NCBI GenBank assembly: GCA_964636375.1
Contig: CAZWRT010000002.1
Location: 11,528-75,527 of the forward strand
DNA length: 64,000 bases
Direction of reading: 5' to 3'
Source: an uncultured Lachnobacterium sp.
GTDB taxonomy: Bacteria > Bacillota > Clostridia > Lachnospirales > Lachnospiraceae
This document shows, one piece after another, positions 32,871 to 52,284 of this stretch (positions are counted from its first letter, which is position 1; every line of letters starts with the position of its first letter). The translations under genes and the position numbers were made by a program. The notes under the pieces were generated by a model. That model was not told where the DNA came from. It saw only the letters and a list, made by a program, of their open reading frames with translations, and did not search any database.

Positions 32871-33677
32871 TTATTTGGAAAGTCCCACCGTGAATTTGCA
32901 CTTGTAACTCTTCTTCCCGATTTTCGCCGTAATGGTAACCTTCCCGGGCTTTTGGGCAGTCACCACGCCTTTTGCATCTACGTTTGCCACTGACGCGTCT
33001 GAGCTCTTCCACTTAATGTTATTCGGATTGTTGTACACGGCAATCATGCGTTTTTCGCCGACAGCCATGGTCTTTTTGCCAAAGTCAATCTTGAGCTTTT
33101 TGCTGTTCGTACAATGAATTCCATGCAGAGCTGCATAGGATTCCGCCACAGATCCGCGCGGAGTGACTATCGTCAGCCTGCTGAAATCACAGCCGTCAAA
33201 GACATGTTCCCCGATCTGCGTGACACTCTTCGGGATCTCAACGCGATAGAGCTTATCCTGGTTCTGAAACGCCCCGGTTCTTCCCCCGTCCCCGGACTCA
33301 ATGGTCGTATAGCCCTTGGGAATCTTCACTGTGGACAGACTCGTCATACCGTTCCCGAGAAAACCGATCAGACTGGAAAAATTCGTGTCGATGCCGGTCA
33401 CCTTGCAGAAGCCGCATGTTTTCGGCAGAACAATGTCTGCCTCCTTTCCTCCGTACACATAGACAACACACTCCCCGGCCGCGAGCTGCGCCTCGTCCGC
33501 ACGGTAATAATATCCGTCTTTATCCTCCCCTGTCACATAGTCCCCGCTGGCCTCACGAGAAAACTCCATCGCGTACACCGCCTGCGGATTCATGCACAGA
33601 GCTGCCAGCATCACGGCAAGAACAAGCGCCGCGGCTATCCCCGCCCTTTTGAACAAACAATATGATGTGGTTTTCAT
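32871..33677 (-). CDS. Secreted protein with BspA-type leucine-rich repeats and C-terminal Ig-like (Big_2) domain
   Basis: Signal peptide ending AVYA; VKIPKGYTTIE, VEIPKSVTQIGEHVF; WKSSDASVANVDAKGVVTA..PG.VTITA. Confidence 0.8.
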   Translation of the reverse strand: MKTTSYCLFKRAGIAAALVLAVMLAALCMNPQAVYAMEFSREASGDYVTGEDKDGYYYRADEAQLAAGECVVYVYGGKEADIVLPKTCGFCKVTGIDTNFSSLIGFLGNGMTSLSTVKIPKGYTTIESGDGGRTGAFQNQDKLYRVEIPKSVTQIGEHVFDGCDFSRLTIVTPRGSVAESYAALHGIHCTNSKKLKIDFGKKTMAVGEKRMIAVYNNPNNIKWKSSDASVANVDAKGVVTAQKPGKVTITAKIGKKSYKCKFTVGLSK

Positions 33678-33698
33678 CCCGTACCTCCTCACAGCGAA

Positions 33699-34520
33699 TC
33701 AGCGAATGACCAGATCCGCAACCCAGTCCTCCCGCAAATTCATGCCGAAGGGCACATCCGGTTTCACTTTCTCTCCGTGGAAATCCGAGCCGCAGGAAAT
33801 CTTAAGTCCAAACTCGGATGCCCAGTCATAATAGAGCCTCACCTGCTGCGGCTTATGCTTGAAATAACAGCACTCGAGTGCATCCAGCCCGGCGTCCTTC
33901 AATCTTGATACCAGCTTTTTCTGCTCTTCCACAGGCATTTTCATCAGTCCCGGATGCGCCAGAACTGCCTTGCCGCCCGCCCCGTGAATCAGTCGTATCG
34001 ACTCCTCCGCCGGCGGCAGCTTCCGGTCCGTCGCCTCGTGAAATTCGGGCGTGTCCAGATAGCGCCGAAAGGCCTCCTTCCGCTCGGCCACGTACCCGTG
34101 CTCCTGCAGCCATGCGGCAAAATGCGGGCGGGCGATGTTCGCCTCCCCGGCAATCTTTCGAATCTCCTCCATCGTGACGTCCATCCCGAGCCCGTTTAAA
34201 TACCGGCAGATGACCTCTCCGCGGTTATCCCTGCTCTCTATGAATTCCCGGCATTTTCCCGCAAGCTGCGGCTCATTCTCGTCGATGGCGAGACCCACGA
34301 CATGAACCTCCTCCCCGGCCGCGGAGCTGATTTCAATGCCCGGAATAAATGGTACACCGAGCTCTTTTGCCGCCGCCTTAGCCTCCCCGATTCCGTTCAT
34401 CGTATCATGATCCGTGAGCGCGTACATCGCAAGTCCGCGTTCCTTCGCCATTTTCACCAGCTCCGCGGGCGCGTACTGCCCATCCGAAGCTGTGCTGTGT
34501 GTGTGCAGATCGATTAACAT
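33699..34520 (-). CDS. PHP domain phosphoesterase (TrpH/YciV family), putative 3',5'-bisphosphate (PAP) phosphatase
   Basis: DLHTHSTASDG, TDHD, GIEIS, RPH, AHP, GSDFHG; 1 bp downstream of cysNC. Confidence 0.85.
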   Translation of the reverse strand: MLIDLHTHSTASDGQYAPAELVKMAKERGLAMYALTDHDTMNGIGEAKAAAKELGVPFIPGIEISSAAGEEVHVVGLAIDENEPQLAGKCREFIESRDNRGEVICRYLNGLGMDVTMEEIRKIAGEANIARPHFAAWLQEHGYVAERKEAFRRYLDTPEFHEATDRKLPPAEESIRLIHGAGGKAVLAHPGLMKMPVEEQKKLVSRLKDAGLDALECCYFKHKPQQVRLYYDWASEFGLKISCGSDFHGEKVKPDVPFGMNLREDWVADLVIR

Positions 34521-34521
34521 A

Positions 34522-36354
34522 TTATGCTCCCGTTGTCTCTATTTTCATCGCCCCAAGAATTGCCTCCACGCACTCGTCCACAGACATTTTGGAGGTGTCG
34601 AGCGAAAGATCCGCATTTGTCGGAATTTCATAGGGGCTCGTAATTCCGGTGAAGTTGGCGATCTCTCCGCTTCTGGCCTTGCGGTAAAGCCCTTTGACAT
34701 CCCTCGCCTCGCACTCCTCGATCGGCGTGCTCACATAGACCTCCACAAAGCCTTCTCCGATAATCTCCTTGGCATTCTTGCGGTCCAGGTGCATCGGTGA
34801 GATAAAGGAGGTGATGACTATCAGGCCCGCATCGTTCATGAGCTTTGCCACCTCCGCGATACGCCGGATATTCTCAACACGGTCCGTCTCGGAAAATCCA
34901 AGGTTGCGGTTTAATCCCATGCGGACATTGTCTCCGTCTAAGAGCATCGTGTGCTTACCCATGGCAAAAAGCTTTTTCTCCAGTGCATTTGCGACTGTGG
35001 ATTTGCCCGCGCCGGAAAGTCCGGTCAGCCAGATGGTCAATGCCTTCTGGCCCATCTGCCCCTCGCGGAGCGAGCGGTTGATATCCATGTTGTGCCAGGT
35101 CAGATTGCTCCCCCGGTCAAGCGTCTTGCGCACAACGCCGCAGGCACTGGTCATATTTGTGATCCGGTCAATCAAAATTAAGCTGCCAAGATCACTGCTG
35201 TTGCTGAAATTGTCAAACACAATCCGGCTGGAGACTGAAATCTCGCAGCGCGCGATCTCATTCTTTAAAATATATTCTGCGGACACCTCCGCGCCCGTAT
35301 TCACGTCAATCCGATAGCGGATATTCATCACCGTAGCAGGCACAAGCTGCGTCCCGATTTTCATCATATAGTTGCGTCCCGGCATCAGGCGGTCATCATC
35401 CATCCACAGAATGTCCGCCGCAAACATGGTTCCCGTCTGGCAGGTAGAATCCCGCTCCAACACACAGCCGCGCGAGATGTCAATCTCCCTGTCAAGCTGG
35501 ATGTTGACCGGCATTCCGACAGATGCCTCCTCCACCTTCTGATCACCGATATGAATCGAGAGCACCGACGCCTTCTCCCCGCTTGGAAGTGCGGTCAGCT
35601 CATCTCCGATACGCACACTGCCGGATGCAATCTGGCCCTGAAAACCGCGGAACGTGTGATCCGGGCGGCAGACGCGCTGAATCGGAAGGGCAAAGCCGAT
35701 ATTCTCCGCTTCCTCATCCACATCCACCTTCTCCAGATATTCCAAAAGAGACTCGCCCTTGTACCACGGCATGCGCGGCGCGCGGGACGTCACATTGTCG
35801 CCGTTTGTCGCCGACACCGGAATGATCTTCATGGTATCGTACTCAAATTCGGACATGAGCACCTTGATCTCTTTCTCGATCCTGCGGAAACGGTCGGCGT
35901 CATAGTTCACCAAATCCATCTTGTTCACCGCGAACACAAAATGCCGGATACCCATAAGGGCGCAGATCCTCGCATGTCTCCGCGTCTGAACCAGAACGCC
36001 CTGGCTGGCGTCAGTCAGAATCACGGAAAGGGAGGCAAAGGAAGCTCCCACTGCCATATTTCTCGTATACTCCTCGTGCCCGGGCGTGTCCGCCACAATA
36101 AAGCTGCGCTTCTCCGTGGAAAAATAGCGGTAGGCGACATCAATCGTGATCCCCTGCTCCCTCTCTGCCATCAGGCCGTCCAAAAGGAGGGAATAGTCCA
36201 ATCCGCCGCTCGCCGAACCAATCTTGGAATCCATCTGAAGAGCCTTCTCCTGATCCGCAAAGAGCAGCTTCGCGTCATACAGCATATGCCCGATCAGCGT
36301 GGATTTTCCGTCATCCACGCTGCCGCAGGTTATAAATTTCAACAAGTTATTCAT
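34522..36354 (-). CDS. cysNC: Bifunctional sulfate adenylyltransferase subunit 1 / APS kinase (NodQ-like)
   Basis: GTPase CGSVDDGKSTLIG, EREQGITIDVAY, DTPGH, NKMD; C-terminal APS kinase WLTGLSGAGKST, LDGDNVR, DVKGLY. Confidence 0.96.
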   Translation of the reverse strand: MNNLLKFITCGSVDDGKSTLIGHMLYDAKLLFADQEKALQMDSKIGSASGGLDYSLLLDGLMAEREQGITIDVAYRYFSTEKRSFIVADTPGHEEYTRNMAVGASFASLSVILTDASQGVLVQTRRHARICALMGIRHFVFAVNKMDLVNYDADRFRRIEKEIKVLMSEFEYDTMKIIPVSATNGDNVTSRAPRMPWYKGESLLEYLEKVDVDEEAENIGFALPIQRVCRPDHTFRGFQGQIASGSVRIGDELTALPSGEKASVLSIHIGDQKVEEASVGMPVNIQLDREIDISRGCVLERDSTCQTGTMFAADILWMDDDRLMPGRNYMMKIGTQLVPATVMNIRYRIDVNTGAEVSAEYILKNEIARCEISVSSRIVFDNFSNSSDLGSLILIDRITNMTSACGVVRKTLDRGSNLTWHNMDINRSLREGQMGQKALTIWLTGLSGAGKSTVANALEKKLFAMGKHTMLLDGDNVRMGLNRNLGFSETDRVENIRRIAEVAKLMNDAGLIVITSFISPMHLDRKNAKEIIGEGFVEVYVSTPIEECEARDVKGLYRKARSGEIANFTGITSPYEIPTNADLSLDTSKMSVDECVEAILGAMKIETTGA

Positions 36355-36355
36355 C

Positions 36356-37249
36356 CTAGAAATACCCCTCCCGCTTTCTTTTTTCCATACTGGCAGCGCC
36401 GCCGTCCGAATCGATCACACGGCTTGTCCGCTCGGACTCCACACTGGCCAGCGTCTCCTCGATGATCGCATCCAGCGTGTCCGCGTCCGACTCCACCGCA
36501 CCGGTAAGCGGGTAGCATCCGAGTGTGCGGAAACGAACCTTTTTCATCTCCATCTTTTCTCCCGGCAAAAGCTTCATCCGGTCGTCATCTACCATGATAA
36601 TGTTGCCGTTTCGGTTCACAACCGGACGCTCCTTGGCAAAATACAGCGACGGGATCTCAATGTTCTCCCTGCGGATGTATTCCCAGATATCCTTTTCCGT
36701 CCAGTTGGAGAGCGGAAACACCCTGACCTCCTCGCCCTGAAAAATCTGCGTGTTAAAAAGCTTCCACATCTCCGGCCTCTGATTCTTCGGGTCCCAGGCG
36801 TGCGCCGAGTTGCGGAAGGAGAAAATGCGTTCCTTGGCTCTCGACTTCTCCTCATCGCGCCTGCCGCCGCCGAAGGCCGCTGTAAACCCATACTTGTCCA
36901 GCGCCTGTTTCAAAGCCTGCGTCTTCATGATATCCGTGTAGGCGCTTCCGTGGTCGAACGGATTGATTCCCTTTTTCACGCCGTCCTCATTGATGTATTC
37001 GATAATCTCAATGCCAAGCTTCTCTGCCATCTTCTCGCGAAACTCTATCATTTCATGAAACTTCCATGTCGTGTTTACATGAAGAAAAGGGAACGGCGGT
37101 TTCTCCGGATAAAAAGCCTTCATCGCAATGCGGAGCATGACCGACGAATCCTTTCCGATCGAGTAAAGCATGACCGGTTTCTCACTCTCGGCCGCCACCT
37201 CCCGCATGATAAAAATCGCCTCAGCTTCTAATTCCTGTAAATGATCCAA
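36356..37249 (-). CDS. cysD: Sulfate adenylyltransferase subunit 2
   Basis: [43 protein letters not shown]; TTG start after AAGGAG. Confidence 0.97.
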
Positions 37250-37316
37250 TGATTTTCTCCTTTCCCTGCGGTTCTTATTGAAATTCTTAAGTAAATTGTC
37301 TCTAAATACACGGTAA

Positions 37317-37345
37317 ATTATACCTTGTTACCCATTTAAAGTCAA
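37317..37345 (-). promoter_or_regulatory. Near-consensus sigma-A promoter for cysD-cysNC-PHP
   Basis: TTGACT (37345-37340), 17 bp, TATAAT (37322-37317). Confidence 0.75.
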
Positions 37346-37467
37346 CCGTATTACTCGCGTGAGAACGTTTGCAAATATGTATAGCTTTTGAAGAATATTT
37401 TTCTGCCGTGTATAAATAATATTATTATTTATCGTAAAAAAATGGACTTATCAACGAGAAGGAGAAT

Positions 37468-38484
37468 ATGAGATCCATGAGAAATAAACTGATAAAAAGA
37501 ACCATAACGTCAATGATTTTAACCGCCTCTCTTCTGCTCGGCCTCTCCGGCTGCGGAAACAGCAACGACAAGGACGGGAAAACCGCGGTGAGAATCGCCT
37601 ATTTCCCTAATATCACGCACTCTCAGGCGTTAGTTATGAAGGCACAGGGGACTCTGGAAAAGAAATGGGCAGACACCTGTAACGTGAGCTGGACCTCCTT
37701 CAACGCGGGTCCCGCCGAGACGGAGGCAATCTTTGCCGGAGAAATCGACCTCGGCTACATCGGACCGGTTCCGGCGTTAAGCGCCAACTCCAAATCCCGC
37801 GGCGAAGTAAAGATCATCTCCAACAGCACGGACTACGGCGCAGTCCTGCTCGTAAGAAAGGACGCCAATATCCACAGCATTCCAGACCTAAGCGGCAAAA
37901 ATATTGCGGTGCCGCAGCTCGGCAACACCCAGCACCTATGCCTTTTAGCCCTTCTCTCCGAAAACGGCTTAAAGACGGTAGACAAGGGCGGTGACGTGAC
38001 CGTGAGCGCCAGCGCAAACGCAGATATCCTGAACCTGATCGACAACGGCAGCGTGGACGCGGCGCTGGTTCCGGAGCCCTGGGGCACAACGATTGAGAAA
38101 AACGGCAGCGTGGAGGTGCTCCTCGACTTTGACAAGATCATGCCAGACGGCAACTACCCCACTGCGGTTGTGGTTGTAAACGAGGATTTTATGAAAAAAC
38201 ACCCGGAGCTGGTCAAAGAATTTTTAGAGGCGCATGAAGATATCACCGTATATATCAACGAACATAAGGACGACGCCATCAAAACCGTCAACGCGGAGAT
38301 CAAGGCCGCTACAGGCAAGGCTCTCGAGGACGACGTGATAGAGAGCGCATTCACGCGTATGGACATCACGACGAAACTGAACAGGGAAGCCATCATGCTG
38401 TTCGGACAAACCAGTAAGGATGAGGGATTTATCACGGCGGTCCCGGAGGAAAAGGATGTATTTACAGCTGAATTCAATCAATAA
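37468..38484 (+). CDS. SsuA/TauA-like ABC substrate-binding lipoprotein (sulfonate/sulfate/nitrate class)
   Basis: Lipobox LSGC; RIAYFPNITH, FNAGP, YIGPVPA, PEPW. Confidence 0.88.
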   Translation: MRSMRNKLIKRTITSMILTASLLLGLSGCGNSNDKDGKTAVRIAYFPNITHSQALVMKAQGTLEKKWADTCNVSWTSFNAGPAETEAIFAGEIDLGYIGPVPALSANSKSRGEVKIISNSTDYGAVLLVRKDANIHSIPDLSGKNIAVPQLGNTQHLCLLALLSENGLKTVDKGGDVTVSASANADILNLIDNGSVDAALVPEPWGTTIEKNGSVEVLLDFDKIMPDGNYPTAVVVVNEDFMKKHPELVKEFLEAHEDITVYINEHKDDAIKTVNAEIKAATGKALEDDVIESAFTRMDITTKLNREAIMLFGQTSKDEGFITAVPEEKDVFTAEFNQ

Positions 38485-39247
38485 AAAATTTGAAAATACA
38501 GATAAGGAGAGTCTTCTGGACATCTCCCTCTCCGTGGAGGCGGGAGAATTCATCTGTATCGTCGGTCCCTCCGGCTGCGGCAAATCCACGATCCTCAATC
38601 TGGTAGCGGGCCTGCTTCTCCCCACCTCCGGCGAAATCCTTCTGGACGGACAGCGGGTGGAAAAACCGGGAGCAGAACGGGTCATGATGTTCCAGGAGGC
38701 CGCTCTGTATCCCTGGCTGAATGTCATGGAAAATGTAATGTTCGGCCTGGAGGCCGCCGGACATTCCAAAGCCGGGCAAAGAGAGCTGGCGGAAAAATAT
38801 CTGCGCATGGTCCAGCTCTGGAAATACAGAGAATACCCGATCCACCAGATTTCCGGCGGAATGAAACAGCGCACGGCATTAGCCCGCGCTCTGGCGATGG
38901 ACAGTAAGCTGCTCCTTATGGACGAGCCCTTCTCCGCTCTGGATAAACAGACAATCAATGTACTCAGGGAGGAACTGGAAGATATCTGGGAGAAGACCCG
39001 CAAGACCATCCTTTACGTGACCCACAGTGTCGAGGAGGCAATCTACTTCGCAGACCGCGTCGTAGTCATGTCGGAGAATCCCGGACAGATCCGCGAGATT
39101 ATTCCGATCACCTTAAAACGCCCCCGCCACGTGGAAAACGCAGAGTTTATGTCCCTCCGGCAGCAGATCCTTCAGAGCGTAAGGGCAGGAGTCCGAAAAA
39201 GTATGCAGGAGGAATTCGATACGGCGTTACAGGAGGGAAAATCATGA
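38456..39247 (+). CDS. SsuB/TauB-like ABC ATP-binding protein
   Basis: GPSGCGKST, ISGGMKQR, MDEPFSALD, VTHSVEEA. Confidence 0.92.
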   Translation: MYLQLNSINKKFENTDKESLLDISLSVEAGEFICIVGPSGCGKSTILNLVAGLLLPTSGEILLDGQRVEKPGAERVMMFQEAALYPWLNVMENVMFGLEAAGHSKAGQRELAEKYLRMVQLWKYREYPIHQISGGMKQRTALARALAMDSKLLLMDEPFSALDKQTINVLREELEDIWEKTRKTILYVTHSVEEAIYFADRVVVMSENPGQIREIIPITLKRPRHVENAEFMSLRQQILQSVRAGVRKSMQEEFDTALQEGKS

Positions 39248-40017
39248 AAACACGTAAAATTATCAGCAGCATCCTGTTTATTGTGGGATTAATTCTTTTC
39301 TGGCAGCTTCTCTACATTGCCGGAACCGACTGGTTTCATCTGGTGAAACCGTACGCTGTCCCCCACCCTCTGGGCGTGTGGGAAAGCCTGTGGCGGCTGA
39401 CCCTTGACGGGACTCTGTTCGCCGCCGTCTGCCGCAGCCTGCTGCGCGCACTCTTCGGGTTTGCAATTGCGATTGTGATCGGAACAATTTTTGGTATAAT
39501 GATACTGAACTCCGAGTATCTGTGCCGAAACTTAAAACCCCTGATCCTCGGCGTACAGACACTTCCCAGCATCTGCTGGGTCCCCTTCGCCATTCTCTGG
39601 TTCGGTCTAAAGGACAGCGCCATCATCTTCGTAGTGGTCATAGGCTCCGCCTTCTCCATCTCACTTGCAGTGGAGAGCGGTGTCAAAAATATCCCGCCGA
39701 TTTATGTCAAAGCGGCCAGAACTATGGGCGTGAACGGCTTAACTTTGTACCGTAAGGTGATTTACCCGGCGGCGCTGCCCGCCTTTGTCAGCGGCCTGAA
39801 ACAGGGCTGGTCCTTCGCGTGGCGCGCGCTGATGTCCGGCGAGGTCATGTCTGCCTCCATCGGTCTGGGCTACACGCTGATGCTGGGCCGGGATCTCGCA
39901 GACATTAATCAGGTGATGACAATCATGCTGGTGATCATCCTGCTCGGAATCTTAATGGACAAGGGGATATTCTCGCTGATCGAGAATCGAATTTTAAAGA
40001 AACGCGGGTTTATTTGA
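39244..40017 (+). CDS. SsuC/TauC-like ABC permease
   Basis: QTLPSICWVP, EAA-like loop KAARTMG, AWRALMSGE. Confidence 0.9.
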   Translation: MKTRKIISSILFIVGLILFWQLLYIAGTDWFHLVKPYAVPHPLGVWESLWRLTLDGTLFAAVCRSLLRALFGFAIAIVIGTIFGIMILNSEYLCRNLKPLILGVQTLPSICWVPFAILWFGLKDSAIIFVVVIGSAFSISLAVESGVKNIPPIYVKAARTMGVNGLTLYRKVIYPAALPAFVSGLKQGWSFAWRALMSGEVMSASIGLGYTLMLGRDLADINQVMTIMLVIILLGILMDKGIFSLIENRILKKRGFI

Positions 40018-41266
40018 CCGGTTTCTTTGTCACCTTCCCGACGACCGTTTTAAACGGATGCTTCAGCTTTTCTTTTAACTGTTTCTGCTGCTCATCCAGC
40101 TTGTTCGTCTGTGCCTCCAGTTTCTGAAGCTGTTGCTCCAGATTCTGAATCTGTTTTTTCAGCTTCGGAATCTGCCCCTTGAGCTCCCGTATCTCTTTCT
40201 CCTTATGTTTGTTGCTGTTTTCGAGTGCCGTCACTTTGCGCAGAAGCTTCCGGTCGGATATCGCCATAAAACGAATGATATCCTCATACAGGTAGGGATT
40301 GTCCGGGTCCCACTTGGGCAAATTCGAGTATTTGTCCGAGAACAGCGGCCTGCCGTCCTTTATATATTCCTCGACGACCTTGCAGTTGCTCTCCTCAAAT
40401 CTCTGTACATATGCCCGCGCCTCCTCCTCCGAAAACATCGTGCTCGGATACTGTTCTCCCGCCACCTTCGTATCCATCAAAGCCACTGAACGGAAATAAT
40501 GGTTGTCCGCCCATGACAGTGCTGGAATGGTGTTGATGACGCGCTTGACCTCGATCGCATTGCTTTTCAGCCTGGCGTTCAAGTTTTCTTTCTCCTCCGG
40601 AAGAACAAACTCCTCCGACCAGCCCAGACCGATCACATTCATGAAATCATGCTGAATACTTCCCTCCTCAAACTCACTTCTGGCAAATCTCCGCACGATA
40701 ATATTTTCTTTTCCCAGCTCCCCGGCGATGATTGACAGGCAGCTGTAGTAATCCGGCATACTGTCCTCTGCGGCATCAGCCAGAAATTCTTCCCATTTCA
40801 TCGTGTTGTACTTGATGAGGTCAATCTTTACCCGCTGATTCCACCAGGACTCTACAAATTCATCCTGCCGTCGCAGATACACGACAATTTTGACCGTGTA
40901 GCCGCCCTTTTCGGCCTCCTCGCGAATCCTTTTCCAGACATCACTTTTCCTTCGGAAACCGGTCATCCAGACTGCCTCGTCGGAGAGAAACACGTTATCA
41001 AACGTCTCAAATGCCTCGCGAACCATGTCAAAGCCCGCCTGCATGCGCCGGTCTTCCTCCTCCAGATCTCGTTTTCCCTTCTCATCATACACGACGCCGT
41101 TTAAAAACAGCGCATTCCGATCCGGCCGCTTTCCAAAATAGCTAAACGGCAGAATCGGGTAACAGTACCCGAATTTTTCAAATATTTCGCGGTTTGAGTA
41201 ACAGAAATTCTGAAGGGATGTCGTACCGGTCTTCGGCGTTCCGATATGCAGATATAATGTTTTCAT
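40010..41266 (-). CDS. Putative PAPS-dependent sulfotransferase with C-terminal coiled coil
   Basis: 5'-PSB-like loop LHIGTPKTGTTSLQ; LSDE; 3'-PB-like VVYLRRQDEFVESWW; about 60-aa heptad repeat and basic tail. Confidence 0.75.
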   Translation of the reverse strand: MKTLYLHIGTPKTGTTSLQNFCYSNREIFEKFGYCYPILPFSYFGKRPDRNALFLNGVVYDEKGKRDLEEEDRRMQAGFDMVREAFETFDNVFLSDEAVWMTGFRRKSDVWKRIREEAEKGGYTVKIVVYLRRQDEFVESWWNQRVKIDLIKYNTMKWEEFLADAAEDSMPDYYSCLSIIAGELGKENIIVRRFARSEFEEGSIQHDFMNVIGLGWSEEFVLPEEKENLNARLKSNAIEVKRVINTIPALSWADNHYFRSVALMDTKVAGEQYPSTMFSEEEARAYVQRFEESNCKVVEEYIKDGRPLFSDKYSNLPKWDPDNPYLYEDIIRFMAISDRKLLRKVTALENSNKHKEKEIRELKGQIPKLKKQIQNLEQQLQKLEAQTNKLDEQQKQLKEKLKHPFKTVVGKVTKKPVK

Positions 41267-44338: not shown

Positions 44339-45067
44339 CTACTCTTCCATGCCGTAAATCTGAGCATCCTCTTTTGCATTGAGGAGCGCACGCATGGTAT
44401 AGAAATCATCGGGTGTGGTGATCTTGATGTTCTCCTGCGGCCCGTCGATCAGATACAGTTTCTTCCCATAGTACTGCATCATCGAGCAGGAGTCGATAAA
44501 ATCCAGCTTTCCTGCCGCTATGGATTTTTCGTGGGCATCCAGCAGCTCGTCCAGGTAAAAGCTCTGCGGCGCGCGGGCAAGCCTGGTGTCCTCCCGGCTC
44601 GGAATCGCAGAGATCGCATTGTCCTTCGACACGACAAGAACCGTCTCTTTGACCGCAACGCTGGTGATCGCCGACCCATGCTCACGCACAGAGGCCAGAT
44701 TATCGTCGATAGTTCTTGCATTGATCAGCGGACGCACACCGTCGTGGACCAGCACGATCGACTTCTCCCCAGCCGCAATCTCCTCGGCTGCCTTCAGCCC
44801 GTGATAGATGGATTCCTGCCCACAGGAACCTCCCGGAACAATTTTTTTCACTTTCTTTAGATTGAACCGACTGACAAGCTCCTCCAGGTAATCGATCCAG
44901 TCCGCCAGACACGCCACCGCGATGGCGTCGATATCCGGATGCTTGTCAAAGATTTCCATCGTGTGAATAATGATAGGCTTTCCGTACACGTTAATAAACT
45001 GTTTCGGTTTAATCCGGGAATTCATCCGCCTCCCGACTCCACCGGCAAAAATTACTCCTATATTCAC
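44339..45067 (-). CDS. IspD/TarI family cytidylyltransferase
   Basis: FAGGVGRRM, PKQF, HDGVRP, APQSF, NIKITTPDD. Confidence 0.9.
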   Translation of the reverse strand: MNIGVIFAGGVGRRMNSRIKPKQFINVYGKPIIIHTMEIFDKHPDIDAIAVACLADWIDYLEELVSRFNLKKVKKIVPGGSCGQESIYHGLKAAEEIAAGEKSIVLVHDGVRPLINARTIDDNLASVREHGSAITSVAVKETVLVVSKDNAISAIPSREDTRLARAPQSFYLDELLDAHEKSIAAGKLDFIDSCSMMQYYGKKLYLIDGPQENIKITTPDDFYTMRALLNAKEDAQIYGMEE

Positions 45068-46386
45068 CTGTTCTGTCCTCCGTCCTGTTGCTTTGTGTGC
45101 TCGCAGATAAAGTCTACCACGCCCTCACAGGCATTTCCCTTTTCGTAACACCCCTTCCCCTCAAAGAAAGCGTCTAGGCGTTTCTGATAATCTCCGTCAT
45201 CAAACTCCATCACATTTTGGTTCAACGCATCGTCACTGTCCGCAATCGCAAACGGCGTTTCCGTCAGCGGATAGTAAAATCCGCGGTCATCGATGTACTG
45301 GCTGATATCCAGTGCATAAATAAATGCCGGCCGGCGGGTAAAGATGAAATCGAAAATCCAGCTGGAATAATCCGTGATTCCCACATCCACCGCCGCCATC
45401 AGCTCCTGCATATCCCGGTAGCCGCTCGCGTTGATGACGCCGTCCATCTCCTCAAACATATCCTTGAGCAGACGGTTCTTCGCATTGTGCATGTGCATGC
45501 GCACAATCACACGCCACTCCCCGCCGAATTTCTGCTCCATGGTCGCCTTCAGACGCGCACAGTCCATCCGGATGGAGCTGACATCCGACTTGTTGTCGCG
45601 GAAGGTCGGCGCGTACATCACGGTCTTAACCGCCGGATCCAGATCGTAATATTCATACACCCGCGCCTTCAGCTCCTGTAATTTTTTCGGGTCGAAAAAG
45701 ATATCATTGCGCGGATGTCCGACCTTTAAAAATTTCGCATGCGGCCAGAAGGACTCCGCAAACACATGCTCGTCAAACACACTGTCCGTCAGAAAATAGT
45801 CGATGGTCTTGTCCGCGCCCCTTGCAATCTTAATCCAGTGCTTGTTCCCGCCGAGCACCTTAATGCCGAGCGATCCGTGCCAGGTGTTAAGATAAATCTG
45901 TCCCTTCTTCTTGGGAACCTTGCGCCACACACAGTTGAGCGCATTGTCAATCCAGAAATGCGCGCTCCCGAGTGCGACAAAGCTGTCCATCGTGTCCCGC
46001 TCCACCAGCCGGATCTGTTTGGGAATCTCCAATTCCTCCCGTTTGCTGATGGTCGTCTTGTTGACGATGAAGATCAGCTCATAGTCCAGCCCTTTTTCCA
46101 TGATCTTTTCGGCAATATATTTTCCGTTGCAGGTGTAGCTGTTTTGAAACTGTCCAAACACGATCCGGTTTTCCTTGATGGGCAGGTGCCTCATAAATAT
46201 CGAGCGCACCATGACGCCCAGGCCCTCCTCGATATTTGCAAAAAAACGTCCGATGTAATAGCCGATCTTTTTTTTGCAGTTCGTGAGGAAATGCCCCTCC
46301 GCGAGTGCAGTGATCAGGATATCCTTTTTCCTCGTCTTCTCGATATAAAATTTCTGCGTCTGCGGATCATACTGTTCCTTTATCAT
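45064..46386 (-). CDS. TagF/TarL-family CDP-alditol:poly(alditol-phosphate) transferase (paralog 1)
   Basis: TWHG, GHPRND, YAPTFRD, ITDYSSWIFDF, RGFY. Confidence 0.9.
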   Translation of the reverse strand: MIKEQYDPQTQKFYIEKTRKKDILITALAEGHFLTNCKKKIGYYIGRFFANIEEGLGVMVRSIFMRHLPIKENRIVFGQFQNSYTCNGKYIAEKIMEKGLDYELIFIVNKTTISKREELEIPKQIRLVERDTMDSFVALGSAHFWIDNALNCVWRKVPKKKGQIYLNTWHGSLGIKVLGGNKHWIKIARGADKTIDYFLTDSVFDEHVFAESFWPHAKFLKVGHPRNDIFFDPKKLQELKARVYEYYDLDPAVKTVMYAPTFRDNKSDVSSIRMDCARLKATMEQKFGGEWRVIVRMHMHNAKNRLLKDMFEEMDGVINASGYRDMQELMAAVDVGITDYSSWIFDFIFTRRPAFIYALDISQYIDDRGFYYPLTETPFAIADSDDALNQNVMEFDDGDYQKRLDAFFEGKGCYEKGNACEGVVDFICEHTKQQDGGQNR

Positions 46387-46389
46387 GTC

Positions 46390-47583
46390 CTACTTCCTCT
46401 CAATTTCTTCGGTGTGGCTTACAATAAAATTCACGACCTGTTCACTTGCATTTCCGCTTTCATAACATCCCCGTGCCTGCAAAAACAATTCACACCGTTT
46501 CCTGTATTCTGCGCTGTCAAACTGACAAATATTTTCATACAGCCGCACGTCATCCTCCGCGACCGCAAACGGTGTCTCGCTCAGTGGATAGTAAAATCCT
46601 CTTTCATCTGCGTAGCAATCCTGATCCGCGGTATACAAAAATGCCGGTTTCCCGGTGAACACAAAATCAAAAATCCAACTGGAATAGTCGGTAATCCCAG
46701 CGTCCACCGCCGTCATCAGCTCCTGAATGTCCGGGTAATCGCTCACATCTGTGACATATTCACATTTGTCTCCCCCGCCGGCCTGCAGCCCATCGCCTAT
46801 ATCATGAAAATGGCAGCGCAGCAAAATCCTCCACACTCCGCCAAAGCGTTTTGAACACGCCCCGGCAAGCTTCCCAAAATCCGGATGGCGCACGTTTTGC
46901 CCATGCTCCCGGAAGGTTGGCGCATACAAAAGTGTATGTTCATTTTGGTCAATCTGATAGCGGAGATAAATCTGCTGCCGGATTTCTGCCCAGTTCTCCT
47001 TCTGAAACAGGATATCATTCCGGGGATGTCCCACCTTCAGATGCTTCACATCCGGCCAGAAGGACTCCGAAAAGACACGCTCATCAAACACACTGTCTGT
47101 AAGAAAATAATCGATCCTGCGGTTGCCGTACCGCGCAACAGCCCTCCAATGACGGCTGCCGTCCAGACGCTTGATGCCCAGCGATCCATGCCAGGTATTC
47201 AGATAAATCTGTCCGGGACGTTTCGGCACCCGTTTCCAGATACAGTTCAGCCCGTTGTCAATCCAGAAGGCAGCGGACGCCTGCACGCGAAAGTGCTCGT
47301 CGGAATACTGCTCTACAAGACGAATTTCTTTTGGAATATGGTACGCGTCACGGTTCTCGCAGACCTCGCGGCTCACACAGAAAAACAGCTCGTACGCCAG
47401 CTTGCGCTTTAAGATTTCTTCTGCAATGTACTTACAGTTGCAGGTATAAGCAGTCTGGTATGTCGCCAGAAAAATGCGGTTGGGTACAATCGGAACTCTC
47501 TTCAGACGAACCATCCGTCCGGCTGCGTCAAGCACTTCCCTTCCTGCACGTACCAGTTTTGATTGTATCTCTTTTTCCCTCAA
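46390..47583 (-). CDS. TagF/TarL-family CDP-alditol phosphotransferase (paralog 2)
   Basis: TWHG, GHPRND, YAPTFRE, ITDYSSWIFDF, RGFY; TTG start. Confidence 0.9.
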   Translation of the reverse strand: MREKEIQSKLVRAGREVLDAAGRMVRLKRVPIVPNRIFLATYQTAYTCNCKYIAEEILKRKLAYELFFCVSREVCENRDAYHIPKEIRLVEQYSDEHFRVQASAAFWIDNGLNCIWKRVPKRPGQIYLNTWHGSLGIKRLDGSRHWRAVARYGNRRIDYFLTDSVFDERVFSESFWPDVKHLKVGHPRNDILFQKENWAEIRQQIYLRYQIDQNEHTLLYAPTFREHGQNVRHPDFGKLAGACSKRFGGVWRILLRCHFHDIGDGLQAGGGDKCEYVTDVSDYPDIQELMTAVDAGITDYSSWIFDFVFTGKPAFLYTADQDCYADERGFYYPLSETPFAVAEDDVRLYENICQFDSAEYRKRCELFLQARGCYESGNASEQVVNFIVSHTEEIERK

Positions 47584-47596
47584 ATTACAATCCCTC

Positions 47597-48493
47597 TTAC
47601 AGCTTCAGCTCATACAAAACATGATACTCCCTCTCCTCCTCCGGCGGCAGCCGCATGTAGTCCTCCCCATATAATTGCTGAAGATACTCCGCTTTCATCC
47701 GCGAGATCGTAAATTTCCTTCCCTCAAAAAGAATCGGCTCCAGCGACAGAAACGGTTTTCTGGGATAGATTTCCCCTCGAAAGTGCCGCTTTCCGGATGG
47801 TATCACCACATAATCCGTATTCTCGTCCCTGCATTTTGACAGGCACTTTTGAATTTTCTGATACCAGAATCGGTGCGCCGGCGCGAACAGCATTCCGATC
47901 ATGCCCTTAACTCTCACCAGAAGCACTGCATAGCGCGTGCCGGCCGCAAGCTCTAAATACTCTCTCCTCCATGCGTACATGCGCCAGCAGGACAGAATCA
48001 AAAGCCCCAGATCGCACTGCACACCATGGAGATAACGGTGAAATTTTCCGGAATAGGTATTCTCGATGGGAAAAATATCAATTTTCACCCCGCACTTGTC
48101 CCGCTCCTGCATCCGATGTTCCCGAAAGAGAGTTCCGTTCCTGTGTATCTGGATAAAGGAGCTCCAGTATTCCGGCGTCCTTAGAGGCGCTTCAATATAG
48201 TATTTGTCCCCATACTCCGCCTCGACAGCATCCAGCAGCCGGTCGATGCAGTTTCTCGGAACATTGATGTCGATGTCATCATCCCACGGGATAAACCCCT
48301 GATGGCGGACAGCGCCAAGCGCTGTTCCTCCGCCCAGCATATAGGGAATTCCCTCCCTCTCACAGACGGCGGCGATATCAGTTAGTATCTCCAGAGATAT
48401 CTGTTTTAACCGGGCCAGTTCCTCCTCCGTGATCCGATGCATCTTCCTTGCCAGCTCTGTCTTTAGCAGCCGGTTTGTCTCCATCCACGCCAT
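47597..48493 (-). CDS. LicD family phosphotransferase
   Basis: GGTALGAVRHQGFIPWDDDID, KIDIFP, YGEDYMRLPP; start uncertain (48484/48493/48505). Confidence 0.92.
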   Translation of the reverse strand: MAWMETNRLLKTELARKMHRITEEELARLKQISLEILTDIAAVCEREGIPYMLGGGTALGAVRHQGFIPWDDDIDINVPRNCIDRLLDAVEAEYGDKYYIEAPLRTPEYWSSFIQIHRNGTLFREHRMQERDKCGVKIDIFPIENTYSGKFHRYLHGVQCDLGLLILSCWRMYAWRREYLELAAGTRYAVLLVRVKGMIGMLFAPAHRFWYQKIQKCLSKCRDENTDYVVIPSGKRHFRGEIYPRKPFLSLEPILFEGRKFTISRMKAEYLQQLYGEDYMRLPPEEEREYHVLYELKL

Positions 48494-49328
48494 TGCCCTC
48501 ACCATTCAAACCCTTCCGTAATGCCCGCCGCTTCGCCTTTTTGCGCTTTTTCTCCCTCTTTTTTATTCTGTCAATTTCCCTGAGCTCCTCCGTGATCGCC
48601 TCGTATTCCGCTCCCACTTTATCAATCCCACCGACAGCGCGCACCGTCCCGTTTTCCAGGATCAGCGCCTTGTTGCAGATGTTGCGGACCTGACTGAGCG
48701 AGTGCGACACTAACAGCACCGTGACACCCTGGTCGAACATACTGCGAATTTTTGCCATGCTCTTCTTTTTAAATCGCGCATCACCCACAGACAACACTTC
48801 ATCCAGGATCAGAATATCGGGGTTCACCGCCGTACAGATTGCAAACCCCAGCCGTGACTTCATACCTGAGGAAAAATTCTTCAGCGGCACATCCAAAAAT
48901 TTCTCCAGTTCGGAGAACGCAACAATCTCATCAAATTTGTCATCGATAAATTCCTTGGAATAACCCAGAACCGCACCGTACAGATAGATATTTTCCCGCG
49001 CCGTATACTGCGGGTCAAACCCCGCCCCCAGCTCGAGCAGAGGGGCAATGACGCCTTTTCTTTTCACGGTTCCCTCTGTGGGCTTATACACGCCGGCAAT
49101 CACCTTGAGCAGCGTGCTCTTTCCGGCTCCGTTCAGACCCAGGATTCCGATGCGGTCCCCCCGGTAGAGGGTAAAACTGACGTCCTTAAGCGCCCAAAAC
49201 TCTTTGTACCGCAATTGCTTTTTAACTAATTTTAAAAAGAATTCCTTCAGAGAATCCACTTTTTCCTGACTGAGGTTAAATTTGACGCCCACATGTTCAA
49301 CCTTAACCGCGATCTCTCTCTCACCCAT
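48378..49328 (-). CDS. Wzt/TagH-type polysaccharide ABC exporter ATPase
   Basis: FWALKDVSF, GLNGAGKSTL, LELGAGF, FSSGM, DEVLSVGD; no recognisable C-terminal carbohydrate-binding module. Confidence 0.92.
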   Translation of the reverse strand: MGEREIAVKVEHVGVKFNLSQEKVDSLKEFFLKLVKKQLRYKEFWALKDVSFTLYRGDRIGILGLNGAGKSTLLKVIAGVYKPTEGTVKRKGVIAPLLELGAGFDPQYTARENIYLYGAVLGYSKEFIDDKFDEIVAFSELEKFLDVPLKNFSSGMKSRLGFAICTAVNPDILILDEVLSVGDARFKKKSMAKIRSMFDQGVTVLLVSHSLSQVRNICNKALILENGTVRAVGGIDKVGAEYEAITEELREIDRIKKREKKRKKAKRRALRKGLNGEGNGVDGDKPAAKDRAGKEDASDHGGGTGPVKTDISGDTN

Positions 49329-49337
49329 GGCAAACCT

Positions 49338-50108
49338 CTATATATGAAGGATAAAATCATCCTGCTTTTTCTTAAACAACACGATTCCCAGCACCAGCGA
49401 ACCAAAGCTCCACGCCACGACATATAAATAATGTTTCGGCTCCACCGAATATCCCAGCAAAGCGCCGCGGCACATCTCGATAATGTGATAGATTGGATTG
49501 TAATTTAAAATCCATGCATAACCACTCTTTAACAGGCGCTCCGGATAGTAGAAGATCGCGCTCATGTACATGATAATAAGGAGCAGGACATTCCATAAAT
49601 ATTCTACATCCCGGAAAAAAACAGCCAGCGTGCACAGGATAAGCCCCACCCCCAGCGTTAAGAGAAACAGAAGCAACAGCGCAGGGATAAACTGGACAAT
49701 ATGCCAGGTGGGAATTACCTTGCAGTAAATATCCACCGCAACCAGAGCAATCAATGAGATCAGAAAAAACACAAACGTATCGATCACACTTGCCAGCGGG
49801 TAAAGATATTTGGGAATATAAACCTTTTTAATCATTGGAGCATTGCTGCGGATGGATTTGGCGGCAGCCTTCGTCCCTGTCGTAAAACAGGAATAAATCA
49901 AACGGCCGGTTATTACATACAGCGGAAATCCCGGTTTTCTCTCAAAAACCGTTCCAAAAACGATCACCAGCACGCAGGTCGTCATAAGCGGCTCGATCAG
50001 TGACCATAATATCCCCAGATAGGACCGGCGGTATTTCAAGCGGATTCCCTTTTTTACAAGCTCTCCCAGAAGAAACTTGTAATTGAAAAATGCCTTGATA
50101 TAGTTCAT
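49338..50108 (-). CDS. Wzm/TagG-type polysaccharide ABC exporter permease
   Basis: KYRRSYLGILWSLIEP, IKKVYIP, FFRD, NP motifs. Confidence 0.92.
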   Translation of the reverse strand: MNYIKAFFNYKFLLGELVKKGIRLKYRRSYLGILWSLIEPLMTTCVLVIVFGTVFERKPGFPLYVITGRLIYSCFTTGTKAAAKSIRSNAPMIKKVYIPKYLYPLASVIDTFVFFLISLIALVAVDIYCKVIPTWHIVQFIPALLLLFLLTLGVGLILCTLAVFFRDVEYLWNVLLLIIMYMSAIFYYPERLLKSGYAWILNYNPIYHIIEMCRGALLGYSVEPKHYLYVVAWSFGSLVLGIVLFKKKQDDFILHI

Positions 50109-50129
50109 ATATGTCTCCTCAATATGCGT

Positions 50130-50879
50130 TCACATACGCTTTCTGAGCGCATGGTACACATAACCAACAAAACACCAGCAGGACTTCCACAGCGGGAACT
50201 TCAGATAATGGCGAAAAATATTCCAATTCCAGACGGCCGCCCGCCTTTTGTCTGCACTCGCCGAATCGGCGGCAAGCCGGTACTGCGCCAGCACCTCATC
50301 TAACCCGTATGCGGTTTCCCCGGCCTTTAACAGATTCAGCCACGCGGCATAGTCTTCATGCGGAATCTGCGGCATTTCAATGTCGGCAAAATATTCGCGG
50401 TCGATCAGCACCGTGAGGCACGCAATCGGATTGCCCTTCAGCAATTGCTTATACGCAACTGTTTCCGGCACATGCCGGATCTGTCCGGTCAAAGTTCCTT
50501 CCGCGTCGATCACCTCGCAGGCCGTGTGGCAGAAATGCGCACCGGTACGGCGCATAAATTCCAGCTGCCGCTCCAGCTTCTTCGGTTTCCACAAATCATC
50601 ACTGTCCAAAAAGGCGATATATTTTCCGGCCGCAAAGCCGATGGCAGTATTCCGCGCACACGCAATTCCGCCGTTTTCTGACCGGCGGAAATAGCGGATT
50701 CTTTGATCCTCCCGGGCAAATTCCTGAACAATCGCAGGAGAATCGTCCGTAGAGCAGTCATCCACAATAATCATTTCCCAATCCGGATATGTCTGAGCGA
50801 GAACTGACTGAATCGTCTGCGCAATATAACGCTTAGCATTGTACATCGGTGTGATGATTGATACCCGATTACTTTCCAT
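50130..50879 (-). CDS. Glycosyltransferase family 2 (TuaG-like)
   Basis: SIITPMYN, VDDCSTD, ARN, AFLDSDD, HEDY. Confidence 0.92.
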   Translation of the reverse strand: MESNRVSIITPMYNAKRYIAQTIQSVLAQTYPDWEMIIVDDCSTDDSPAIVQEFAREDQRIRYFRRSENGGIACARNTAIGFAAGKYIAFLDSDDLWKPKKLERQLEFMRRTGAHFCHTACEVIDAEGTLTGQIRHVPETVAYKQLLKGNPIACLTVLIDREYFADIEMPQIPHEDYAAWLNLLKAGETAYGLDEVLAQYRLAADSASADKRRAAVWNWNIFRHYLKFPLWKSCWCFVGYVYHALRKRM

Positions 50880-50886
50880 ACAGCTT

Positions 50887-52245
50887 TTATCCTTTTTTGA
50901 TCGCTGTGATCTGCTGCTCGTCCACCCCTTCCGTATTCTCCTTCACAAAGAGGATCTTGAATGTCAGAAACAGAATCTTGATATCCATCCACAGCGAATA
51001 ATTCTCGATATAGGTCAAATCCAGCTTGAGCTTGTCATAGGGCGTCGTGTTGTATTTACCGTACACCTGTGCATAACCGGTCAGTCCGGCCTTCACCTTG
51101 AGCCTCAGCACAAATTCCGGAATTTCCTCCGTATACTCCTCGGCGATCTCCGGCCGCTCCGGCCTGGGCCCCACCATAGACATCTCGCCCTTTAAAATAT
51201 TAAACAGCTGCGGGAGCTCATCGAAGTGGACCGCACGGATCAAACGCCCCACCGGAGTAATCCTCTCATCCCCCTTAGCCGCGAGCCTTGCCCCCTCTTT
51301 CTCGGAATTCACGGACATGCTGCGGAATTTATAGATCATAAAAACTCTGCCCTCCAGGGTCAGGCGTTTCTGCTTGTACAGAATCGGACCGCGGTCATAG
51401 AGCTTGATCCCGAGCGAAATGATCAGCATAAACGGAGATGCGATCATGATCCCGATCAATGCCAGCACAATATCCACCACGCGCTTGACAAAAAGCTCAA
51501 CTATGCTCAGGCCCTGATTTCTTGACAAAAGGAGCGGCGTGTCAAACAGATGGATATCATCCGCCCCCCGGAACAGGATGTCGGAAATTTTAGGAGTCAC
51601 ATATGTGCGGACCGACTCCTGATAGCAGAATTTCATGATCTGATTGCGCGCCTCAGCCGGCAGGTCACACAGCACCACAGCATTGTACTGTAAGATCATG
51701 GGATACAGTTTTTCATACCCCACCCGGTAACTCACGGAAGCGCAGATATTGTATTTGTCCTTTCGCGTATTGATCTTTGCGATCAGCTCGTCCGGCGCGT
51801 AGTGGCCGTAAATAACCAGCATCTGTCTCGGCGGATAAAGGCGCCGGTATGCGTTTCGGACAAGAATTACCCACTGCACCAGAAAACCGATATCCATAAG
51901 CGCCATAAGGATGAGCGGCTGCATAGGCAGATAATCGTTTGCAACCAGACAGATTTCCAGATAAGTGACACCTGTGGACAAAATTACAGCCAGCGTCTGG
52001 GACAGAACGATGTCCGACAGGCGCATATAGCCAATGCGATAGCCTCCGAATACCTTGGTGAAAAAAAACACAAACAGCACATACAGACCAATCACAGCCC
52101 AGTTTCCACGCCGGAAAAGCCGGTTTTCTTCGTCAAGCATCGGGATATAAACGATATACCACAACCATGCAAACAGCGCCGCCTCTACAGTCAGCGAAAT
52201 CACATTGGCCGTGAAATTCAGCAGATGCTTATATTTTTCCCTCAT
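50887..52245 (-). CDS. Initiating polyprenyl-phosphate sugar-1-phosphate transferase (WcaJ/CpsE-like)
   Basis: N-terminal TMs; KRVVD, YKFRSM, DELPQL, VGPRPE, GLTGYAQV; GTG 52266 alternative start. Confidence 0.92.
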   Translation of the reverse strand: MREKYKHLLNFTANVISLTVEAALFAWLWYIVYIPMLDEENRLFRRGNWAVIGLYVLFVFFFTKVFGGYRIGYMRLSDIVLSQTLAVILSTGVTYLEICLVANDYLPMQPLILMALMDIGFLVQWVILVRNAYRRLYPPRQMLVIYGHYAPDELIAKINTRKDKYNICASVSYRVGYEKLYPMILQYNAVVLCDLPAEARNQIMKFCYQESVRTYVTPKISDILFRGADDIHLFDTPLLLSRNQGLSIVELFVKRVVDIVLALIGIMIASPFMLIISLGIKLYDRGPILYKQKRLTLEGRVFMIYKFRSMSVNSEKEGARLAAKGDERITPVGRLIRAVHFDELPQLFNILKGEMSMVGPRPERPEIAEEYTEEIPEFVLRLKVKAGLTGYAQVYGKYNTTPYDKLKLDLTYIENYSLWMDIKILFLTFKILFVKENTEGVDEQQITAIKKG

Positions 52246-52284
52246 ACTAACATTATCCTCTGTCACGTAAAAAATATACGCGCC

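Follow-up and report, generated by a model that had tools for sequence, protein, structure and literature searches.

In Bacillus subtilis and Staphylococcus aureus, wall teichoic acid is made by a pathway of TagO, TagA, TagB, TagF/TarF/TarL, TagGH and LCP proteins, and the usual decorations of teichoic acids are D-alanine, sugars and phosphocholine. To our knowledge, textbooks do not list sulfate as one of them. A sulfated and glycerophosphorylated capsule is described for Cobetia marina KMM 1449 in passages of PMC11766843, and the characterised gut sulfotransferases treated in passages of PMC13449962 act on small molecules. Here we analyze a stretch of 64,000 nucleotides (the window) from an uncultured Lachnobacterium sp. 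of the Lachnospiraceae, in which a predicted sulfotransferase dependent on 3'-phosphoadenosine 5'-phosphosulfate (PAPS) is encoded by the last gene (40010-41266, minus strand) of a teichoic-acid-like polymer operon. The window is G000:C2:11528-75527, G000 being the source assembly (2.5 Mb, 85% complete); G, C and L numbers denote genomes, contigs and loci. An earlier, sequence-only reading proposed that the block at 32871-52266 produces a sulfated teichoic-acid-like wall polymer. That interpretation is supported, with the acceptor predicted from gene context, and sulfate on a cell-wall polymer of this gut bacterium is likely.

The joining of a PAPS-to-sulfotransferase module to a teichoic-acid-like polymer operon is real and coherent, and the enzyme family is one missed by standard annotation; the chemistry is predicted from sequence and a structural model. 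The polymer operon consists of 11 minus-strand genes, from a phosphoglycosyltransferase gene (52266) down to the candidate sulfotransferase gene (40010), with gaps of at most 21 bp except for 56 bp ahead of a beta-helix gene. The open reading frames of wzt and licD overlap, and those of the last two genes, for the beta-helix protein and the sulfotransferase, overlap by 4 bp. An SsuABC-like importer on the plus strand is convergent with the sulfotransferase gene and divergent from the cysD, cysNC and PHP genes, which are spaced 1 bp apart, as had been noted for PHP. The gene content claimed earlier (cysD, cysNC, PHP, SsuABC, candidate sulfotransferase and polymer genes) is confirmed, with every gene in the position given for it. 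The block as originally drawn is also real, although its first gene, which follows the PHP gene and encodes an exported protein with LRR_5 and Big_2 domains (32871-33692, minus strand), has no shown role and was matched in 1 of 76 homologue loci. All 30 bins of the window are covered by contigs from two other runs (X1 and X2) at about 96% identity. The ssuC/sulfotransferase junction is spanned by contigs in X2, and the sulfotransferase/beta-helix junction in both. Misassembly is unlikely, since contigs of other runs bridge the junctions around the sulfotransferase gene.

What, then, is the protein encoded at 40010-41266? It consists of a catalytic part (residues ~1-330), a coiled coil (~340-402) and a basic tail. 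Searches of Pfam and NCBIfam returned only coiled-coil matches at 340-402 and no catalytic family, and PDB sequence searches with the protein and with its profile found no catalytic relative. Homologues are abundant (1356 at E<=0.001 among 7996 scored) and nearly all are unnamed; weak PF00685 scores were seen in 13 of 73 aligned homologues, the best with an E value of 6e-5. The AlphaFold model, calculated on the homologue alignment, has a predicted local distance difference test score (pLDDT) of 93.9 and was compared by a VIA structure search with 48,161 chains. The 15 best rows were all sulfotransferases, headed by the heparan N-sulfotransferase 1nst (Z 14.7, root-mean-square deviation 3.8, 237 residues aligned); further matches were 3rnl (Z 14.1), 3-O-sulfotransferase (Z 13.8) and STF1 (Z 8.9), and the first kinase appeared at Z 8.4. 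The structure search proposed with the sequence-only reading therefore returned a sulfotransferase and not a kinase.

The sequence around the predicted active site agrees with the fold. The loop reads GTPKTGTT, with no GK[ST] Walker A motif, and we take P-K-T-G-T-T to be the 5'-phosphosulfate loop with its catalytic lysine rather than a Walker A. The R-x7-S pair, R132 and S140, is presumably the 3'-phosphate-binding site, as assigned by spacing and position. Across 120 homologues G9, E97, R132 and S140 are invariant, while K12 (115, with R in 5), T13 (119) and T15 (115) are nearly so; E97 is a candidate catalytic base.

A P-loop kinase or another NTP-binding enzyme, for example a phosphorylating terminator of the WbdD type, would make the cys genes unrelated neighbours. 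Foldseek supports this view and counts against ours, for it ranks a sulfotransferase first (E 1.7e-4) with kinases so close (2.4e-4; PFKFB, zeta toxin and adenylate kinases) that the classes are not separated, and there is also no Pfam sulfotransferase match for the protein. We nevertheless consider a kinase most improbable, given the GTPKTGTT loop in place of a GK[ST] motif, the invariant R-x7-S, the gap of 6 Z units between sulfotransferases and kinases in VIA, and the co-occurrence of APS kinase with the family in 16 of 16 genera, described below. The product of 40010-41266 very probably belongs to a PAPS-dependent sulfation machinery, as judged from the model, the conserved residues and the company of APS kinase.

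No transmembrane or signal segment was found in the sulfotransferase, which is therefore assigned to the cytoplasm. Throughout the family the C-terminus is formed by a coiled coil, which varies in length, and by a basic tail; the coil has about 60 residues in the window protein and is shorter in most homologues. An HP/NP motif occurs in 70 of 116 tails, and the mean charge of the last 20 residues is +4.5. The hydrophobic moment of the window protein's own tail is modest (0.39-0.58), which weighs against the mechanism proposed below.

No relative of the protein is encoded on viral contigs, and outside the Lachnospiraceae the range of the family was drawn from plasmid matches only. Eubacterium oxidoreducens DSM 3217, Lachnospiraceae bacterium 3-2 and Parablautia sp. 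Marseille-Q6255 are named carriers among the homologue matches; 34S labelling is therefore feasible. The source genome has a second family member (35% identical) at C7:20910-22043 (L001 10911-12047), divergent from a two-component pair, otherwise alone and directly before electron transfer flavoprotein (ETF)/butyryl-CoA genes. Within 10 kb of the homologues a response regulator is present in 34 of the 76 loci and a histidine kinase in 31, a frequency that hints at regulated sulfation.

Such stand-alone cassettes beside two-component systems would also suit regulated detoxification, and gut bacteria do possess PAPS-dependent enzymes, such as BtSULT and ErSULT, for small molecules (described in part of PMC13449962). 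The acceptor could accordingly be a host sterol, bile acid, hydroxy fatty acid or secondary metabolite. ErSULT is STF1-like according to the same passages, whereas for the window model Z is 8.9 against STF1 and 13.8-14.7 against 3rnl and the heparan sulfotransferases. Fusions to glycosyltransferases occur among distant homologues, and by inspection no small-molecule pathway gene recurs among the operon neighbours. We therefore regard a small-molecule acceptor as very unlikely.

The genes beside the importer would provide the donor. CysD, the small subunit of ATP sulfurylase (36356-37249, minus strand), is above cut-off for NF009214 and TIGR02039, and CysNC, the ATP sulfurylase GTPase fused to the PAPS-making adenosine 5'-phosphosulfate (APS) kinase (34522-36354, minus strand), is above cut-off for NF004035 and matches PF01583. 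Among 300 genomes drawn from as many genera, each at least 90% complete, APS kinase is present in all 16 genera that bear the sulfotransferase family and in 20 of the 284 others (Fisher p 5e-17). Within the genus, where the family is found in 26 of 151 genomes, cysD occurs in 26/26 family-positive versus 40/125 family-negative genomes and APS kinase in 25/26 versus 10/125, these being counts over non-independent kin. An APS kinase gene lies within 10 kb in 48 of the 76 homologue loci, six of which are the same DNA as handle loci.

Could cysD, cysNC and ssuABC simply serve sulfur assimilation, with the reductases missing because the assembly is incomplete? The source genome is indeed only 85% complete and carries cysK-like genes, so that the absence of cysteine synthase noted earlier concerns the window, cysK-like genes lying elsewhere in the genome. 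Moreover, NIR_SIR, the sulfite-reductase-type domain, occurs in 37 of 39 genomes of the genus that have cysD and lack the sulfotransferase. Against this, no APS/PAPS reductase or sulfite reductase gene lies in the window, and the genome-wide search suggested with the sequence-only reading found no APS, PAPS or sulfite reductase in the 85% complete G000, where neither a second PF01507 gene nor a NIR_SIR domain was found. Nor was a NIR_SIR domain, or an APS reductase above cut-off, found in G089 and G101, the two closest genomes, which share the locus (the three assemblies being 85, 84 and 75% complete). Most cysD-positive genomes without the sulfotransferase are also without APS kinase, and at locus L105, where cysDN stands alongside an APS reductase, the sulfotransferase has a stand-alone cysC of its own. 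Assimilation is thus a highly improbable purpose of these genes. The sequence-only reading is thus refuted by neither of two conditions set for it, a kinase-like model of the protein and cys genes that keep company with reductases rather than with polymer genes: APS kinase tracks the family, and no sulfite reductase domain or APS reductase was found in G000 or its two closest relatives. NIR_SIR occurs, however, in 30 of 41 other family-bearing genomes (a count that excludes G072), which speaks against our reading. One of the two cysK-like genes of G000 (C14:33055-33920) was matched in two pieces in different frames and is possibly frameshifted.

The functions of the PHP enzyme and of the importer were assigned because CysQ and sulfate transporters occupy these slots in relatives. 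The PHP phosphoesterase (33699-34520, minus strand) falls in the YciV/CV1693 group (NF041577 best, below cut-off; PDB 2yb1, E 9e-38) and is predicted to be a phosphatase of 3'-phosphoadenosine 5'-phosphate (PAP); its slot is held by CysQ (above cut-off) in loci L123 and L134. For YciV, a passage of PMC11528712 refers to enhanced activity on 3',5'-pAp. The importer comprises an SsuA-family binding lipoprotein (37468-38484; TIGR01728 above cut-off) predicted to take up a sulfur oxyanion, likely sulfate, an SsuB-like ATP-binding cassette (ABC) ATPase recognized by family profiles (38420-39247) and an SsuC-like permease (39244-40017; PF00528), all on the plus strand, the 3' end of the last overlapping that of the sulfotransferase gene by 8 bp. 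Among the 76 homologue loci the importer slot is filled by Sbp in 10, ChrA in 9 and SsuA-like proteins in 8. The nearest PDB relatives of the window SsuA-like protein are taurine and sulfonate binders, and we therefore only infer sulfate as its ligand. In four records (L035:10001-12130, L089:9390-11714, P0041 and P0048) the reading frame of the sulfotransferase continues through the lipoprotein signal into the body of a binding protein of SsuA or Sbp type; these are either two-sided membrane fusions or lost stop codons.

The polymer genes, all on the minus strand, begin with an initiating polyprenyl phosphoglycosyltransferase of the WbaP/WcaJ type, not TagO (50887-52266; PF02397, TIGR03025 above cut-off), and a TuaG-like family 2 glycosyltransferase (GT2; 50130-50879; PF00535, NF047683 at 296 bits, below the cut-off of 400). 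These are followed by a Wzm/TagG-type ABC-2 permease (49338-50108; PF01061), a Wzt/TagH-type ATPase (48378-49328; PF00005, weak PF13476, NF010065/NF010066 below cut-off) and a LicD-family phosphotransferase (47597-48505; PF04991). Two TagF-family transferases that would use cytidine diphosphate (CDP)-alditols come next, at 46390-47583 (PF04464, E 6e-58; TarF the nearest NCBIfam, below cut-off) and 45064-46386 (PF04464, E 6e-62); they are 49% identical to each other and closer to TarF than to TarB. An IspD/TarI-like cytidylyltransferase for CDP-alditol (44339-45067; PF01128) has as its best PDB match the ribitol-5-phosphate cytidylyltransferase 4jis, and a second IspD is encoded in G000 at C84. 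The reductase of the short-chain dehydrogenase/reductase (SDR) type at 43296-44330 (PF01370), predicted to convert a CDP-ketose to the CDP-alditol, is best matched by 8v4g/8v4h. A passage of PMC10918830 names 8V4G, with a cytidylyltransferase/SDR pair making CDP-glucitol (CDP-6-D-glucitol synthase), and another cites Mnp1/Mnp2 as making CDP-mannitol. The product is best described as a glycosyl-alditol-phosphate polymer. The remaining gene of the operon encodes an exported right-handed beta-helix protein (41263-43239, likely start 43239; PF13229, N-terminal hydrophobic stretch), and this gene recurs beside the same type of polymer operon in relatives. The LCP and GtrA genes said to lie nearby do so, at 29739-30869 (minus strand; PF03816, TIGR00350) and 24529-24921. 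The LCP ligase, a candidate wall-anchoring enzyme, is 10 kb from the sulfotransferase gene, and we infer that it would attach the polymer to the wall; the product may instead be lipid-anchored or capsular.

The main question is which molecule receives the sulfate. In favour of the operon's own polymer, the sulfotransferase gene stands last in the operon and overlaps its neighbour there. Five other arrangements place a homologue in or beside a TagF cluster with no adjoining cys genes. In G139 and G117 the homologue ends a similar operon (phosphoglycosyltransferase-LicD-TagF-Wzm-Wzt-TagF-IspD-SDR-TagF), followed by a beta-helix gene, and cysD is on another contig. It stands directly after a TagF gene in G144 and convergent with a TagF-type polymer operon in G334, five tandem copies precede TagF-IspD-SDR genes in G363, and copies flank TagF clusters in G383. 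TagF lies within 10 kb of the sulfotransferase in 6 of 15 fetched genera against 0.47 expected (p 1e-6), or 1.4 expected (p 7e-4) when the TagF counts are tripled; this test covered 15 of the 16 family-bearing genera, the G324 locus being left out. Genome-wide, PF04464 is present in 13 of 16 family-bearing versus 131 of 284 other genera (p 0.008). Among genomes of the genus without a close match to the first TagF, the family-negative ones being picked for completeness, the figures are 11 of 12 family-positive versus 8 of 21 family-negative (p 0.004). In the 14 genomes of the genus that have both, the sulfotransferase is at most 15 kb from TagF in seven (four arrangements), compared with none of seven family-negative genomes for cysD and TagF (p 0.047). 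On a FastTree phylogeny of 120 homologues, from which those under 300 residues, including a truncated G147 copy, were excluded, the TagF-near label, carried by 25 rows, takes 13 changes to explain, and strong branches force no fewer than 10 of these; so many changes point to repeated association or loss, with the direction not shown. In Phaeobacter and Qingshengfaniella, distantly homologous domains occur as fusions with GT4 and GT2 glycosyltransferases. From this gene context we think it rather more probable than otherwise that the operon's own wall polymer is the sulfation acceptor.

Several of these loci have features of their own. At L126 (G363:C37) the five tandem paralogues (8573-14307) are just upstream of genes for polysaccharide pyruvyltransferase, TagF, an IspD-like protein and an SDR; this 1.6 Mb genome has a sixth family match elsewhere, and L126 is the best candidate for a heavily sulfated polymer. 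At L096, L104, L120, L126 and L135, operons of this TagF/IspD/SDR type contain or adjoin a polysaccharide pyruvyltransferase gene (PF04230), and no such gene is found in the window operon. The Roseobacter-group fusions (L139, NC_018288.1, 10330-13047; L140, 5643-9446) are glycosyltransferases whose unannotated C-terminal domain matches the family, and the one in Phaeobacter lies within a polysaccharide cluster that has an ABC exporter and a further sulfotransferase, which Pfam does recognise.

Other observations weigh against the operon's polymer as acceptor. The co-occurrence anticipated earlier holds well for APS kinase, which tracks the family, and much less well for the polymer genes, as TagF is within 10 kb in only 9 of the 76 homologue loci (7 of 51 long ones) and most homologue cassettes sit among housekeeping genes. 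Three of the 16 family-bearing genera (G362, G297 and G324) have no PF04464 match, among them the 99% complete G362 with its strong family match, and G010 and G109 carry the same polymer operon type without the sulfotransferase. The chance estimate for TagF proximity ignores the clustering of surface-glycan genes in variable islands. The source genome itself has the second paralogue and other possible acceptors, namely a flagellin flanked by glycosyltransferase-like genes, a second polysaccharide locus and sulfatase-domain (LtaS-like) proteins.

These observations could mean that the enzyme is a PAPS sulfotransferase for another surface glycoconjugate (a flagellin O-glycan, the second polysaccharide, lipoteichoic acid or a glycolipid) and that its position as last gene of the TagF operon reflects insertion into a surface-glycan island. 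The absence of TagF near 67 of the 76 homologues, the presence of the enzyme without TagF in G362, and the flagellin and second polysaccharide loci of G000 fit such a view, as do cysD-cysNC beside flagellin genes in G136 and G145. The latter two loci, L114 (G136:C11, with ssuABC) and L115 (G145:C11), combine cysD-cysNC with flagellin and glycosylation-type genes and may make a sulfated flagellin glycan via another transferase, no family member being present in the 20 kb fetched at either. Flagellin is within 10 kb in only one of the 76 loci, and the family is found repeatedly in TagF clusters away from cys genes, with TagF enriched genome-wide. We judge another glycoconjugate somewhat unlikely. 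The dlt system acts in trans, and by analogy a sulfation cassette acting in trans could reconcile the TagF-distant loci with a polymer acceptor.

With the operon's polymer as acceptor, the following sequence of events can be proposed. The SsuABC-like transporter would import sulfate, CysD and CysN would form APS, and the CysC domain would convert it to PAPS, these last steps being assigned at family level above cut-offs. From their families, the phosphoglycosyltransferase and GT2 enzyme would begin a glycan on undecaprenyl diphosphate, the IspD-like and SDR enzymes would supply CDP-alditol, and the two TagF enzymes and LicD would add alditol-phosphate. In the cytoplasm the sulfotransferase, which its coiled coil and basic tail probably keep at the membrane, would then sulfate a sugar or alditol hydroxyl of the lipid-linked polymer before export, and the PHP enzyme would hydrolyse PAP to adenosine monophosphate. 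Finally, Wzm/Wzt would export the polymer and the LCP ligase would join it to peptidoglycan. On balance, the genes and the model favour a locus that builds a sulfated, alditol-phosphate-containing wall polymer, sulfation probably being an optional anionic decoration.

How far can this be generalized? We offer, with slightly less than even confidence, that about 5% of the Lachnospiraceae genera sampled carry a hitherto unnamed family of membrane-tethered sulfotransferases, which sulfates the teichoic-acid-type wall polymers of gut commensals. It would be a plug-in decoration comparable to dlt, often linked to two-component systems and, within one type of operon, alternating with pyruvylation. 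It is doubtful that the variable-length coiled coil is a WbdD-like ruler, with sulfate capping the chain and setting its length. WbdD-type systems have a Wzt with a cap-recognising carbohydrate-binding module, whereas the window Wzt (316 aa) has no C-terminal carbohydrate-binding domain among its Pfam matches and ends in a charged low-complexity tail. By inspection, TagF-near homologues are not separated from others by tail length, and since tail length does not follow context a ruler role is without support from it. Capping is thus a minority reading. If the proposal is true, gut commensals have a densely anionic, sulfated wall, which would matter for the adsorption of phages, for the binding of cationic peptides and for recognition by host proteins specific to sulfated glycans. 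Host proteins with affinity for heparin could attach to such a wall, or gut sulfatases could use it as a substrate. In any case, a testable enzyme family has been identified that Pfam misses.

As to the surroundings, the conserved genes cdaA-cdaR(ybbR)-glmM (window:52561-57223) precede the polymer operon. The opposite flank holds glmS, a UDPGP-family gene, LCP and pgm, so that the block is set within cell-wall precursor genes. An AcrB/resistance-nodulation-division (RND)-family transporter of 1272 aa, a length unusual for a Gram-positive host, is encoded at window:2370-6188 and adjoins a TetR gene. No Rfam match was found in the window, and its promoter and terminator counts are not above those of shuffles, apart from one sigma-70-like match upstream of cysD (37317-37345, minus strand; 11 of 12 positions, a consensus match only). 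The RNA library X1 gives even contig coverage across the whole stretch and, the coverage being that of contigs, provides no indication of expression or co-transcription.

In comparison with the pathway of B. subtilis and S. aureus, the locus shares TagF-family enzymes, CDP-alditol supply, ABC-2 export and a nearby LCP, and it differs in its WbaP/WcaJ-type initiator, in an SDR-type rather than TarJ-type reduction and in the presence of LicD. TagO was not found in G000 (85% complete), whose single PF00953 gene scores only on mraY and below cut-off; TagA and TagB are absent from the locus, and the only trace of the TagA family is a weak, partial match to PF03808 situated 5 kb outside the window. 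On these grounds the locus does not appear to be one for canonical wall teichoic acid. The sulfotransferase resembles the heparan sulfate N- and 3-O-sulfotransferases (1nst, 3bd9) and Alicyclobacillus 3rnl over residues 1-313 (Z 13.8-14.7), with the 5'-phosphosulfate loop lysine and R-x7-S in common; unlike these matches, to which it is about 14% identical, it is without a transmembrane segment and ends in a coiled coil followed by a basic tail. With the WbdD terminators, as described in part of PMC11231755, it shares an N-terminal catalytic domain, a coiled coil and a Wzm/Wzt operon, and perhaps a membrane-associated C-terminal region; it differs in that a cap would be sulfate, in the short coil and in a tail that also occurs in homologues far from exporters.

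A literature search, with most subscription journals outside its scope, found no description of a sulfated teichoic acid or of such a pathway in Lachnospiraceae, and exact-phrase queries naming such a polymer gave only an algal paper. A search on flagellin sulfation listed only general reviews, and one by phrase on CDP-alditol had no result. A sulfated, peptidoglycan-associated polymer in another Gram-positive organism, the actinobacterium Arthrobacter sp., is cited in a passage of PMC7278926, which gives it a repeating trisaccharide motif and mentions neither genes for it nor a teichoic-acid pathway. The wps-1 cluster of Actinoplanes missouriensis (PMC13390465) likewise has sulfotransferase genes in a Gram-positive polysaccharide cluster, with a predicted product; the passages on it describe a Wzx/Wzy exopolysaccharide and recognisable sulfotransferase domains, and TagF does not appear in them. 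The gene logic of the window most resembles that of the Cobetia sulfated capsule cluster, for which passages of PMC11766843 describe cysD, a bifunctional cysN/cysC, a PAP phosphatase, a sulfate permease and a sulfotransferase in an ABC-transporter glycan cluster. All of these slots are filled in the window, PHP and SsuABC having been assigned by slot swaps. As far as those passages go, the Gram-negative Kps capsule of Cobetia is replaced here by a Gram-positive system with TagF and LicD enzymes, Wzm/Wzt and a nearby LCP, and PHP stands for CysQ, an SsuABC-like importer for the permease and a sulfotransferase without a Pfam family for the enzyme that would transfer the sulfate.

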